Assembly: GCA_031459535.1 (NCBI GenBank)
Contig: JAVKIJ010000027.1
Location: 1 to 35,707, forward strand
Direction of reading: 5' to 3'
Length of the DNA: 35,707 nt
DNA from: Candidatus Fervidifonticultor quintus
GTDB lineage: Bacteria > Sysuimicrobiota > Sysuimicrobiia > Sysuimicrobiales > Humicultoraceae
The position numbers were made by a program. Positions 15,001 to 21,000 of the stretch are shown piece after piece; the first letter of the stretch is position 1, and every line of letters begins with the position of its first letter.

Positions 15001-18000
15001 ACCGAACTCGTCGAGCGTGGGCGTCTTGCTGGCCTGTTTGGTATACGAGGTGGTCCCCTCCTCGCCCAGCAGGTAGACGACCTGGGCCCGCACCCGGTCC
15101 AGATCGGCGCCCATGGCCTCCAGCACCCGGGCCGCCACGCCCTCACCCTCGCGGATCAGGCCCAGCAGCAGGTGCTCGGTGCCGATGTAGTTGTGTCCGA
15201 GCCGCCGCGCCTCGTCCAGCGCCAGTTCCAGCACCTTCTTGGCCCGCGGGGTGAACGCCACCTCTTCATGGGGGGCCCGCTCCCCGCGACCGATGGCGCC
15301 CTCGATTTCGGCGCGGACACGCTCGGGGCTGATGTTGAGGCTCTCGAGGACCTTGCTGGCGACGCCTTCGCCCTCGCGAATGATCCCCAACAAGATGTGT
15401 TCGGTTCCCACAGCGCTGTGGTTGAGGCGCTTGGCCTCTTCCTGGGCGAGGATGATGACGCGACGGGCGCGCTCTGTGAACCGCTCAAACATCGCCACTG
15501 CACTCTCCTCTCCCGAATCGGGCGAGAGGGTCACCACTCACTGACGGGCACCAATTCTGTCCTCTGCACGTGCACTCCTGCCCAGGGCCTCTGGAGCCGT
15601 CACCACTGTTGTGCAGCCTCGTTCCGCCACCAGCGGCGGCGCTCCCGATCTGGTCTACGTTCCAGAGTCCAGCCGCATTCCCGGCTGCGGGTTCGACCTG
15701 CCGGATCCGCTACCCGTATCTACTTGTACCCAACCCGCTGCGCGCTATGACTGGTGAGCGACGTCGAGGATGGTATACTGCAGCGTCCCGGCCGGCACCC
15801 GCACGGTCACCGTCTCGCCTCTCTTGCGGCCGATGAGGGCCTGCCCGACGGGAGACTCGTTGCTGATCCGGTCACGAAGCGGATCGGCCTCCGCCGACCC
15901 TACGATGGTATACGTGATCTCGTCGCCACCGGTGACGTCCTTCACCCGGACCGTGGACCCGATGGTCACCGCCTCAGGGTCGGTCGCGTTGTTGTCAGCG
16001 ACGCGGGCGTTGCGCAGAATCTGCTCGAGCTGCAGGATGCGACCTTCAACGAAGGCCTGCTCGTTCTTGGCGTCGTCGTACTCGGCGTTCTCGAACAGGT
16101 CGCCAAACTCCTTGGCGGCCCTGATGCGCTCGGCGATCTCCTTGCGCCTGGTCCCCTTGAGATACTCCAGCTCCTCCGCCAACTTGTGGAGGCCAGATTC
16201 GGTCAAAATGATTTCCTTCTCGCCCTCGGGAAGCGGCGTCTTGGGAGTCCTGTTAGGCTTGATGTTGCGGTTCGGCATCGCACCCGCCTACAATGGATAC
16301 CGACCGCCGGGCACACCGGCGGTCGGGGCGACTAAGTGCGAGTATAGGAGAGGCCGCGCATCCCCGTCAAGCGGAGCCCGCGGCCCCTGCCAGCCGCACG
16401 ACCCGCGGCGTAAACCCGGCCCGCCGCATCCACTCCAGGCACTCCGCCGGCGTCATGTCGGCCGGCCGCCGGCCGGACAGCGCGATCAGGGCGGCCTCCA
16501 GGGCGTTGGTGGGAAATGACCGGCCGTCCATCTCCGGAGTGGTGGTGATGAGCAGCGACAGGCGCCGCTGCCGCAGCACCACCAGATCGGCTTCCGTGAT
16601 CGTGTTGGTCAGGATGGTCTTCCCGGAGAGATCTTCCGGCAGATGCCGCCGAATGAAGTGGAAGTCGCCGGCGATGATCTCAGCCCACGCGTAGGCTCGC
16701 CCGAACTTCGGCCGGATCTCGTCCTGCCGTTCGCCCGTGGGGTAGAGCCAGGTGAAGGGCAGGCGCGTGAAGATCGGCAGCAGGAGCGCCGCCAGGATCT
16801 TGATCGTGGTCAGCCCGCGCAGCCCAATCGGGATCCCGAGCGCGAACATCAGGTCCCCGAACACCACGTCGGCCCCAGCGCCGGCGAAGGCTTCCGCCAT
16901 GGCGAAACGATCCACCGATGAAGCCAGCAGCACCCGCTGCCCAGCCAGCGGACGTCCCGTCTCCCTGGGGAGCACGTTCACGATGACCTCGCGCTCCCAC
17001 CCCTGCTTGATGCCGCTGCCGTCCACCACCGGCGTCCGCATCCCCGCCACGGCTCGCACCGCGTCCCGAATGTAGTACCGTCGCCCGCCGGCTGCCAGGG
17101 CCAGGTTGATGCCGCCCAGCCCAATGGCGTCCACCTTGCCGTCCAGTTCGCGCAGCTTGCGGCAGAAGCGCGCGTAGTCACCGTCGGTCCCGATCCGCTC
17201 GATGATAATGCGTTGACCCAGCAGCTCGGTCTCCACGCGCTTGTCGCGCTTGCTGGACCCCAGGCTGATGCTCACCACGTGGCGTACGCTCCCGGGCCGC
17301 GGCGCTGGCATGGCGTCTGTGGGCTCTCCTCTCACGGAAACACTCTACCGCGATCGGCGCACGGTCACCGCCGCCGCCGACAGCACGTCGCCGGCGAGGA
17401 CCCGGCGGACGCGGCCGTCTCGGAGGCGGACTCGCAACGCGCCGTCCTGGTCTGGGCCCTCGGCAATGCCTTCGAGCACCTCGCCCGGCAGCGTCACGAC
17501 CACCGGCGCACCAGCCAGGGCGTCGCGCTCCCTCCAGACGTCGATCACGCCGGCGTCACCCGCCAGCCAAGCCGCATACCACCGGCCGAGTCGATCGAGC
17601 AGAACATCCAGCACGGCGTCCCGTTCGATGGGACGGCCGCTGGCTGCGTCCAGGGAGATGGCGCGGCTGGCGACATCGGGCGTCAGCGCTCCCGGCGGCA
17701 CGGCCACATTGACGCCTACCCCCACCACCAGCGCGTCTGCCGCGCCCTCGAGGAGGATGCCCGCGGCCTTCCTCTCGTGCACCATGACGTCGTTGGGCCA
17801 CGCGAGCGTTGCTCTGAGGCCGGCAGCGGCCTCGATCGCCTCCGCGACGGCCACGCTGGCAGCCAGGCTGAGCAAGGCGAGGGATGGACTGCCGGGCGGG
17901 CGCAGCAACACCGAGCACCACAGCCCTCCTGCCGGTGACTCCCATGACCGGCCCAAGCGGCCCCGCCCCAGCACTTGGCGGTCGGCCACGACGGTTGCCC

Positions 18001-21000
18001 CTTCGGCCGCGCCGACCGCCGCCAGCAACCGGCCGATGTCATTGGTGGACGTCGCCTCCCCCAGCCGGACCAACGGCCGGCCCAACCCGATTCCCGTGCG
18101 ACCGTGGCCGCTCATGCCTCGGACGCGCGCAGCGGAAAGATCGTCGCCAGCCGGATCTGCATCTGCGCGATGAGCTGGTCCAGTTGGTCGAGCCGCAAGG
18201 TGGCCGCATCCACGGTGAGCACCGGGCAGAGGTCAAAGCGGGCCACCCACTCCTCATAGCGCTCGGCGAGCTGCGCCAGATAGGCTCTGGGCATCTCCCG
18301 CTCGTAGTGGCGCGACCGCGCCCGGATGCGCTCCATGAGCAGCTCGACCGGCGCCCGCAGGTAGATGATCAGGTCGGGTGGCTTCAGGAACTCCACCATG
18401 AGGTGGAAGAGGTTGTGGTAGCATCGATAGTCGCGTTCGGTCATCAGGCCCTGCAGATACAGGTTACGGGCGAAGACCTCGGCGTCCTCATAGATCGTCC
18501 GATCCTGCACCACCGAGTGCGGCGCCCGCAGAATCTCCTGGTGATGCCCAAACCGCCGGGTCAAGAAGAAGACCTGGAGCGGAAAGCTCCAGCGGGCCAT
18601 GTCGGCGTAGAAGTCGGCGAGGTACGGGTTTTCGTCCACCACTTCGTAGTATGGCTGCCAGCCCAGGCGCTGCGCCAGCAGCGTGGTGAGGGTGGACTTC
18701 CCCGAGCCGATGTTCCCGCTCATCGCCACGAACCACTTCACCGGCGCGCCTCCGCCACCGCATGGGCGATCACATCCAAACCCGCGTCCCCCCGCGGGTC
18801 CAACCGCGCGGTGTCAACGATGACCACCGGCGCCGTGTCGAACTGTTCGAAGAACGCTTCGTACGCCTCCGACAGCCGGGCCAGGTAGTCCGGCGCCAGA
18901 GCCCGTTCAAACGGCCGGCCTCGGGCTGCGATGCGCTGGATCAGCGTCTGGACGGGCGCGCGCAGGTACACGAGCGCGTCCGGAGGCGGCACCAGAGGCG
19001 CAATCAGGTCGTAGACGTTCCGGTACAGCGACAGCTCGTTCTCGTCGAGCGTGAGTTCCGCGAACAGCCGGTCCTTGGCAAACATGTAGTCGGCCACCAC
19101 GGGTCTCCCCTCGGCCAGGTAGGAGCGTATGCTCTGCTGTTGCCGGTGCCGGCTGAGCAGGAAGAACATCTGGGTCTGAAAGGCCCGTCCGCGCATGTCC
19201 TGGTAGAACGTCTGGAGAAACGGGTTGTCCTCTACCACCTCGAGCAGTAGACGGGCGTCGAAGCGGGCAGCGAGTCGCTGCGCCAGCGTCGTCTTCCCTA
19301 CACCAATCGGTCCCTCCACGGCGAGCAGCCATCCCTTCGAGGCCGGCGGGAGCAGGAGCCGCTGCTGCGCGCGCGGGCGGCGGATCTCTAGCGCCGCGTT
19401 CACCCCAGTGCCCGGTCGGCTGCCTGCTCTCGCCTGATCTCCACCATCGCGGCCTCCAGCGGACCGCCTAGGATCACCTCGGGCTTGCGGACGCGGACTT
19501 TCACGGCGGCCACCTGCGGCAGGACCAGCACCCGGCCAGCGATCGCCTCGGCCACCGCCTCCAGGAGCGCTAGAGGCGGCCCTTCCACCACCTCCTGGGC
19601 GATGCCATACAGCCTGCGATAGTCCACCGTCTTCGACAGGTCGTCGCGGCGCCCGGCCTCACGGAGGTCCACCTCCACTTCGATGTCCACGAGGAAACGC
19701 TGCCCCCGCGCGCGCTCCGAGGGCAGCACGCCGTGCCGACCGAAGAACTTCATGCCCACCAGGGCCACACGATCGCTCATCCGACGATGACCTCGCCTCC
19801 GAGAATGCCGCCGGTCCGGCCTGCTACCCCATCAACTTGACCTCCAGCACTTGATCGCGCGCAAAGCGGTGCAGGCGCAGATGGGCGCGGGCCGCATCGA
19901 GCACCGCATCCAGGGGGACCAGTCCCACGATCTCGCTGTCGGCCACCTCAACCCCGAAGCGTGCCGCCTCGACCCGCACCAGGTCGAAGACACGCGCCAG
20001 CGGCGTTCGAGCATGATCCAGGACGTTGATCGTCACTTGCGCCAGGCCCGAGGCGGATCTCACACCCATGGCCTGGACATTGACCAGCCCGCCGCCAGAC
20101 TCTCGCACCGCCCTGGCGACGGCCCTGGCCACACCCACATCCGTGGTGTGCAGGTTGACGTTGTAGGCGATCAAGGGCTTCCGCGCGCCAACGACAACGG
20201 CGCCGGCCGTGGGATGCGGAGCCGGATCGCCCACATCAGGCTTCCAGGGGTCCTGCTGCATCTTCTGGGCGAGCCCCTCGTACTCGCCCTTGCGGATATC
20301 AGGAAGCCGCACCCGGTGCGGCGCCGTCGCCGCATGGGCGTAATAGTAGACCGGTACTTTCAGCTCGGCCCAGATCCGCGCACCCACGCGGCGCGCCAGG
20401 GCCACGCAATCGTCCATGGTGGTCCCCGCAATGGGGACGAACGGTATGACATCGACGGCGCCCAACCGCGGGTGCTCGCCCCGATGGACGTTCATGTCAA
20501 TCAGCGCCACCACCTGCCGCGCCATGGCCAGTACCGCCTGCTCGAGGGAGTCGGCGTCGCCGGCGAAGGTGAGCACACTGCGGTTGTGGCTGGGGTCCGA
20601 CTGGACGTTGAGCAACGTCACGCCCGGCACGTCCCGGATCGCCGCCGCGATGGCCTCGATGATGTGGGCACGGCGGCCTTCGCTAACGTTGGGCACGCAC
20701 TCGATGAGCGGAGCTGGCATGGGCATCGCGCCTCCAATCTGCCGTCGGCATCCTTCGTCGCGGTGGGAGGTTCTCCTCGATCGGACAGCCAATCACGTAG
20801 TCGGTGCTCATGGCAGGTCTGCGCGCAGGATCGCGCTCGGTCCCGTCATCTCAACTGACACGCCTCAGCCGGCTGGTGGCGCTGGTCCTCCGTCACCGCC
20901 CCGAGGACGTCGGCGTCAGCCTGGACGCCGGCGGTTACGTGGATCTGGGCGCGCTGGCCGCCGCCCTGGCCGCTCAGCCCGGGTGGGAGTCGATCACGTC

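Follow-up and report, generated by a model that had tools for sequence, protein, structure and literature searches.

Many Mycoplasma species encode only PPAT and DPCK for coenzyme A (CoA) synthesis, and the mechanism of bacterial 4'-phosphopantetheine uptake is stated to be an open question (PMC8721197). CoaBC is absent or bypassed, with entry at 4'-phosphopantetheine, in two further bacterial systems, the pantetheine shunt Apn, which consists of PanK, CoaD and CoaE (PMC6593275), and the CoaA-dependent salvage of B. subtilis (PMC11487621), and both need a pantothenate kinase. The yeast carrier Opt1 imports (phospho)pantetheine-glutathione disulfides, so that the kinase is bypassed, and 4'-phosphopantetheine taken up in this way can also bypass PPCS and PPCDC; the authors state that Opt1 has no orthologues outside yeast (PMC12406275).

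We analysed a window of 35,707 nucleotides, the whole stretch of DNA under study, from Candidatus Fervidifonticultor quintus (G000), together with a set of 94 genomes of its phylum. The window carries birA (biotin ligase; minus strand, 17345..18115; PF03099 at E 4e-15 plus PF02237), which forms the upstream flank of an emptied slot, then a gap of 66 nt (17279..17344), then g01235 (minus strand, 16367..17278; 303 aa, GTG start at 17278, stop at 16367, in a frame open from 17335). Two deoxynucleoside kinase genes (minus strand, 18112..19403; PF01712) lie upstream of birA, and greA (minus strand, 15745..16278; PF01272 and PF03449) is the downstream synteny anchor; coaX-bearing outgroups have both kinase genes too, and the same pair was seen in G039. 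Outgroup genomes carry an S58 peptidase gene, a gene for a PanT-like ECF S component (so named for its PF12822 match and its position beside coaX) and coaX in place of the gap, and of the 61 coaX-bearing genomes outside the 25-genome clade that includes G000, 55 had coaX no more than 500 nt from g01235. The birA–g01235 junction was spanned by a single 2459-nt contig (16741-19199) in all three DNA runs, which belong to one study and two of which may be the source of the G000 DNA itself; the RNA run yielded only short contigs, which are no evidence of expression. On contig C13, priA comes 57 nt after cmk, with no coaC between them, and coaC immediately preceded priA in all eight outgroup loci fetched. 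Both slots are contiguous and empty in G000, as the initial annotation had described, and the likely coaB slot coincides with contig ends (end of C69, start of C128).

The gene on the other flank of the slot, g01235, is conserved in 90 of the 94 genomes and has no Pfam or NCBIfam match, its database label being 'quinate 5-dehydrogenase'. Its predicted model (pLDDT 91) matched the acyl-ACP reductase AAR best (6jzq; Z 15.5, rmsd 4.2, 249 aligned) and a related domain second (Z 14.1), both far above the remainder. Given this predicted acyl-ACP-reductase-like fold and its retention across the phylum, g01235 appears a poor candidate for a kinase, whether of ASKHA, P-loop, GHMP or ribokinase fold, or for the bypass.

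The phylum-wide searches showed that coaX (PF03309; controls above cut-off) was present in 68/94 genomes, DFP in 56/94 and the flavoprotein family in 74/94. Neither coaX nor DFP was found in the six genomes of this genus or the eight of its sister genus, g12; DFP was also undetected in 20 of 69 outgroup genomes. The flavoprotein family gave no match in g12 and one in this genus, in G008, and that previously unverified CoaC-family match proved to be UbiX, above its NCBIfam cut-off. PanC was missing from all 94 genomes, in agreement with the earlier claim for the phylum. Lineage-built HMMs and tblastn against the six frames of G000 recovered no early CoA gene better than E 0.1. The type I kinase (TIGR00554) was not found above cut-off in any of five genomes tested, with controls scoring above it, and neither model of type II (PF03630, PRK13317), a type that the initial annotation had left open, passed its cut-off in the same number, although no control genome reached either cut-off, so that their sensitivity is unproven. 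The archaeal PoK/PPS route needs CoaB and CoaC to reach CoA, and G000 has neither. All three genes (coaX, coaB and coaC) were also missing from G017, G019, G020 and G021; the loss with retention of coaD and coaE stands, and its restriction to two genera does not. In total, 18 of the 25 clade genomes lack all three, and 11 of these 18 have a completeness of 90% or more and a contamination of 5% or less, so the incompleteness of bins that had been raised as a possible refutation is not the explanation. The absence of coaX, coaB and coaC from G000 is real.

Both the birA–g01235 and the cmk–priA slots are empty throughout the 25-genome clade, the PanT-like gene having gone from the former along with coaX, and the PanT-like query found nothing in the 25 clade genomes compared with 62 of 69 genomes outside it; a scan of the PF12822 family returned only other S components in the clade. 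Seven of the 25 genomes carry a coaX-coaBC cassette at another site, its nearest relatives being in Dehalococcoidia (up to 63% identity; coaX adjoins coaBC in 43 of 80 loci); the other 18 carry neither the native set nor the cassette. Relatives that do have coaX and coaBC share the two empty native slots, so these slots do not by themselves prove pathway loss, contrary to the initial argument. It is the empty cassette site that is informative, and in G000 this site lies on C35 beside a DEAD-box helicase gene. Of the 18 cassette-less genomes, 11 have an uninterrupted stretch from the helicase to ppa that lacks the cassette, and in the other seven this stretch breaks off or was not reached; a metagenome scan with the helicase as query found no close relatives (best match 62%). 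Trees and synteny suggest that the clade ancestor most likely acquired the cassette from Dehalococcoidia, which displaced the native panT-like gene, coaX, coaB and coaC, and that the cassette was then lost at least twice, after which only coaD and coaE would have remained in the 18 genomes.

Downstream of the missing steps, G000 encodes a whole coaE and a coaD that is cut by a contig end (first 41 model positions missing). Both genes were found in all five relatives, with coaD at full length and a dN/dS of about 0.12-0.29 across 10 pairs, and coaD was conserved in all six cassette-less genomes checked. Their intact retention in relatives implies that substrate still enters the pathway at the CoaD step or earlier. 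The CoA demand in these cells is real: acpP and fab genes, assigned by reading their sequences, and AcpS are present.

Compared with the described systems, the clade resembles the mycoplasmas in having coaD and coaE without PanK or CoaBC, the truncation of coaD in G000 aside, and shares with them the question of how 4'-phosphopantetheine enters (PMC8721197). Mycoplasmas are host-bound with reduced genomes, whereas the clade is environmental, has fatty-acid synthesis and includes close relatives that retain the full CoA pathway; the genomes measure 1.5-4 Mb, and the runs in which the DNA of G000 (3.1 Mb, 3054 predicted proteins) occurs are hot-spring metagenomes. CoaB and CoaC are absent as in the Apn shunt and the B. 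subtilis salvage, but the pantothenate kinase on which both depend was not found here as type I, II or III. Opt1 differs in being eukaryotic, and the carrier of the clade is only proposed. The Dehalococcoidia coaX-coaBC pair is closest to the cassette of the seven clade genomes; it is missing from G000 and represents the state before the loss.

We judge it somewhat better than an even chance that these cells import 4'-phosphopantetheine, be it in free form, as a mixed disulfide or after its release from CoA or dephospho-CoA, after which CoaD would adenylate it and CoaE would phosphorylate the product. The precursor probably comes from neighbouring cells, by what would be a new route for bacteria. 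The repetition of the loss, with no replacement gene in common at the site, points to a promiscuous importer that existed beforehand. CoaX is described as unable to use pantetheine (PMC11487621), which would leave it without a role once CoaBC was lost. Against import, E. coli excretes 4'-phosphopantetheine and reportedly cannot re-import it (PMC12570885), and retention of coaD would also follow from recycling alone. One candidate importer is a PhnD/C/E-like ABC system of G000 (C13:5306-8340); PhnD-like proteins occur in 83 of the 94 genomes, which counts against this candidate, and extra copies within thiamine-salvage operons of G001 and G006 hint that the family may carry phosphorylated cofactors here. 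The binding proteins of this system and of a second phnDCEE operon have solved relatives whose ligands are small oxyanions such as phosphite and phosphonates, which argues against this lead; about 61 peptide-type binding proteins are a second set of candidates. It is a tentative proposal, less likely than not, that the clade subsists on 4'-phosphopantetheine released by its community and taken up through an ordinary ABC importer, possibly PhnD/C/E-like, and that this capacity allowed the repeated loss of the early pathway.

The main alternative, which we think doubtful, is that pantetheine or pantethine enters the cell and a non-homologous, unrecognised kinase phosphorylates it before CoaD and CoaE act; for this reason the earlier statement that CoA "must" start from 4'-phosphopantetheine is too strong, and what holds is entry at or after that compound or such a kinase. 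Bacteria are known to use uncharged pantetheine as a precursor (PMC11487621, PMC6593275). An ECF energiser module was present in all five genomes tested, and the candidates comprise a PurM/ThiL-fold protein (C110:8630-9616) together with an HmpT-like ECF S component, a GHMP kinase (C69:26028-27038), and a deoxynucleoside, ROK or PfkB kinase. The PurM-fold protein occurs in 85/94 genomes, including 6/6 of this genus and 8/8 of g12, and in G004 and G006 the HmpT-like gene lies where the cassette would be. However, every candidate is also present in full-pathway genomes. The PurM-fold protein was not found in G020, and none of its 26 commonest neighbour clusters (80 loci) was a coa gene by eye. 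The sole solved relative of the S component is 4hzu_S, which we take to be the pyridoxamine-binding HmpT, and the homologue of the GHMP kinase matched no pantoate kinase model.

None of the candidates tested, importer genes included, was specific to the loss. The HmpT-like S component is ancestral and was not found in G008, G020 or G021; DUF1893 with its S component (C66:4915-5960) occurs in 10/94 genomes and 0/8 of g12; and no PF12822 family member was restricted to cassette-less genomes among 34 scanned. BadF-type ASKHA proteins and PF01663 phosphodiesterases are both present in the outgroup G013, and the second phnDCEE operon, found at four g12 loci, in G004, G006 and G007 and in the cassette-bearing G002, is absent from G000.

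Import of intact CoA or dephospho-CoA, with CoaD kept solely to recycle phosphopantetheine from internal turnover, is unlikely. Mycoplasma mycoides capri requires CoA rather than its precursors (PMC6609329), and dephospho-CoA uptake is predicted in Rickettsia and Chlamydia, yet putative dephospho-CoA importers often retain CoaE alone (PMC8721197), whereas coaD is conserved in all six cassette-less genomes checked; from the genome sizes and the hot-spring runs that contain this DNA, no host is evident.

We consider it very improbable that the genes simply sit in unassembled or unbinned DNA. The cassette is a single small locus, G000 is 88.85% complete with contig ends at coaD and at the likely coaB slot, and the DFP search had misses among outgroups, but the genes are missing from all the genomes of two genera (6 of 6 and 8 of 8), and the helicase-to-ppa stretch is contiguous without them in 11 of the 18 genomes. 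A wholly new pantothenate route, with non-homologous replacements for the kinase, CoaB and CoaC, is hardly credible: cassette-bearing relatives without a PanT-like gene imply some other pantothenate importer in the clade, but three unknown enzymes would be required, the two families searched hold, to our knowledge, all known PPCS and PPCDC, and none of the three emptied sites shows a gene cluster.

The set of coaD and coaE alone is already known in host-bound mycoplasmas. A literature search, with subscription papers mostly outside its reach, found no report of a free-living bacterium with this set, or of genes for CoA synthesis in this phylum; neither 'pantothen' nor 'coenzyme A' occurs in the main text of PMC11604079 or PMC11962464, and the supplement of PMC11604079 may tabulate these genes. 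The 18 genomes without the early pathway, beside seven close relatives with it, form a natural set in which to search for an importer or for a kinase of a fourth kind; finding one or the other would close a gap in a pathway that is targeted by antibacterials. For this uncultured phylum, the predicted growth supplement is pantothenate for most members, but members of this clade would be expected to need phosphopantetheine, pantethine or CoA. If true, import through an ordinary ABC system, possibly of PhnD type, would give the first named bacterial importer of 4'-phosphopantetheine and would represent CoA-level cross-feeding outside hosts.

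Both native gene slots were found to be contiguous and empty in Candidatus Fervidifonticultor quintus (G000), with 66 nt between birA and g01235 on contig C59 and 57 nt between cmk and priA on contig C13. The former junction was spanned by one contig in 3/3 DNA runs, all from one study. The outgroups, 69 of the 94 phylum genomes covered by our counts (the unpublished G016 enters these tallies and one locus only), showed the order birA, S58 peptidase, PanT-like S component, coaX and g01235, with coaX no more than 500 nt away from g01235 in 55 of 61 coaX-bearing genomes, while coaC preceded priA in 8/8 loci. 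The remaining 25 genomes grouped together with a support of 1.0 in a 30-marker tree, except that G022 had no marker there and was placed by genus label alone. Within this clade, birA directly adjoined g01235 in 18 of 19 loci fetched (in the nineteenth, from G002, the gene caller merged the frames), and cmk adjoined priA in all 8 loci reaching both genes among 18 regions fetched. The PanT-like query matched 0/25 clade genomes versus 62/69 others. The initial annotation had equated empty slots with loss of the pathway; the emptiness stood, but the equation did not, as both slots in G001, and the birA slot in G023 and G025, were equally empty in genomes that possess coaX and coaBC. The coaB slot of G000 probably lies between two contig ends (the end of C69 and C128:1-357), which read as insertion-sequence pieces.

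Family searches of the 94 genomes detected coaX in 68, DFP in 56 and the flavoprotein family in 74, and confirmed that the phylum has no panC (0/94). As initially proposed, coaX, coaB and coaC were missing from this genus (0/6 genomes) and from genus g12 (0/8): searches for coaX, DFP, the flavoprotein family and panC returned a single match, in G008, and this lone CoaC-family case was UbiX. HMMs derived from the genes of this phylum matched nothing in the six frames of G000. Type I kinase was above the cut-off in 0/5 genomes, with positive controls matched. Type II kinase, previously checked in tables only, was likewise found in 0/5 genomes with each of two models, both lacking a positive control. 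Both coaD and coaE were present in G000 and in 5/5 relatives each, and coaD was under purifying selection (dN/dS about 0.12-0.29, 10 pairs). G005 carries a second coaD in two pieces (C4:5235-5700) in addition to an intact copy on C50.

Fused coaBC was present in seven clade genomes (G001-G003, G022, G023, the unpublished G024 and G025), with coaX either adjoining it or present as a partial gene where a contig ends. The nearest relatives of this CoaBC were from Dehalococcoidia and other Chloroflexota (≤63% identity). All seven copies, including that of G024, formed one group (support 0.999) in which genus g2 branched first, matching the species tree. The five full-length CoaX copies of the cassette were nested within Dehalococcoidia, and a tree uniting them with native CoaX was rejected (p-AU 0.0002, based on 35 of 80 rows and a chosen outgroup not cleanly on one side of a branch). 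In g2 and g11 the cassette was located near a DEAD-box helicase and genes for phosphate uptake; in G023 it adjoined phoU. A single clade of cassette-less genomes was rejected (p-AU 8e-5, 14 genomes), implying at least two losses of the cassette. Displacement of the native genes by a single gain, with losses afterwards, is the most parsimonious history; less parsimoniously, loss may have come first, with regain and spread among clade members. In G068, a 2.1-kb contig (C280, locus L158) bears a fused coaBC that fell among other Dehalococcoidia and separately from the cassette; it is possibly bin contamination.

The G000 assembly comprises 138 contigs (3.12 Mb, completeness 88.85%), and DFP went undetected in 20/69 outgroup genomes. 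However, the helicase-to-ppa stretch was contiguous and cassette-free in 11 of 18 cassette-less genomes (6/6 of this genus and five of g12), making missing assembly an unlikely explanation. No common replacement gene occupied the site in these 11; in G000 a DUF47 gene follows the helicase by 37 nt (C35).

The slot neighbour g01235 (16367-17278) had no Pfam or NCBIfam match. Its structure model (pLDDT 91) best matched the fold of acyl-ACP reductase (Z 15.5, rmsd 4.2, 249 residues), and it adjoined an AAR/PigE-like gene in 43/80 loci and coaX in 21/80; it looks like a lipid-related neighbour and not a CoA enzyme. In G000 the AAR/PigE-like partner is missing from the slot, and a homologue is fused to a PlsY-type acyltransferase (C35:21820-23577). 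The pairing may represent an undescribed fatty-aldehyde or ether-lipid pathway. By reading of sequences, folB at 19400-19780 lacks, at this locus, the folK that comes after it in G005 and G007. An ORF in G030 (L493:12438-13001) reads as what we take to be a LAGLIDADG homing endonuclease-like protein.

G000 has AcpS and, by reading, acpP, fab genes and acyl-CoA enzymes; therefore the cell requires CoA. Because CoaB and CoaC are absent, neither pantothenate nor the archaeal route can lead to CoA, and the remaining entry point is 4'-phosphopantetheine. Pantetheine is not a CoaX substrate, according to PMC11487621, so loss of coaX alongside coaBC is expected. We lean towards uptake of the phosphorylated precursor, since neither of the pantetheine-accepting kinase types was found, coaD has been conserved, and uptake of 4'-phosphopantetheine as a disulfide is possible in yeast (PMC12406275). 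Import of pantetheine followed by an unrecognised kinase is less likely, and uptake of intact CoA appears quite improbable.

No gene among the candidates tested tracked the loss. The best lead is a candidate importer, a PhnD/C/E-like ABC system flanked by nrdJ and pgeF (C13:5306-8340), whose near-universality (83/94 genomes) fits a pre-existing capacity. Extra PhnD-like copies are frequent in the clade. However, solved relatives bind small oxyanions, and the second operon is absent from G000. Stand-alone PhnD-like binding proteins occur in or beside thiamine-salvage operons of G001 (L359:6380-7339) and G006 (L503:1435-2385), with 54-55% identity to the ancestral copy. The approximately 61 peptide-type binding proteins of G000 could be disulfide carriers. 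A PurM/ThiL-fold protein (85/94 genomes), which is frequently coupled with an HmpT-like ECF S component (C110:8630-9616; C105:17823-17957 in G000), is likely a vitamin salvage kinase. At C66:4915-5960, a DUF1893 (TM1506) gene precedes a PF12822 ECF S component; the latter was detected in 10/94 genomes.

We found no published report of such a gene set in this phylum or in free-living bacteria, in a search that left one relevant supplement uncovered. G000 falls outside the pantetheine shunt as defined in PMC6593275 because no known kinase was found. PPAT+DPCK-only mycoplasmas (PMC8721197) share this gene set and probably a similar way of working, whereas their host dependence is not shared by G000, whose DNA occurs in hot-spring metagenome runs. 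These results indicate that the absence of early CoA genes is real, and we infer a mechanism, with a candidate carrier, in which 4'-phosphopantetheine would be taken up in its phosphorylated form.
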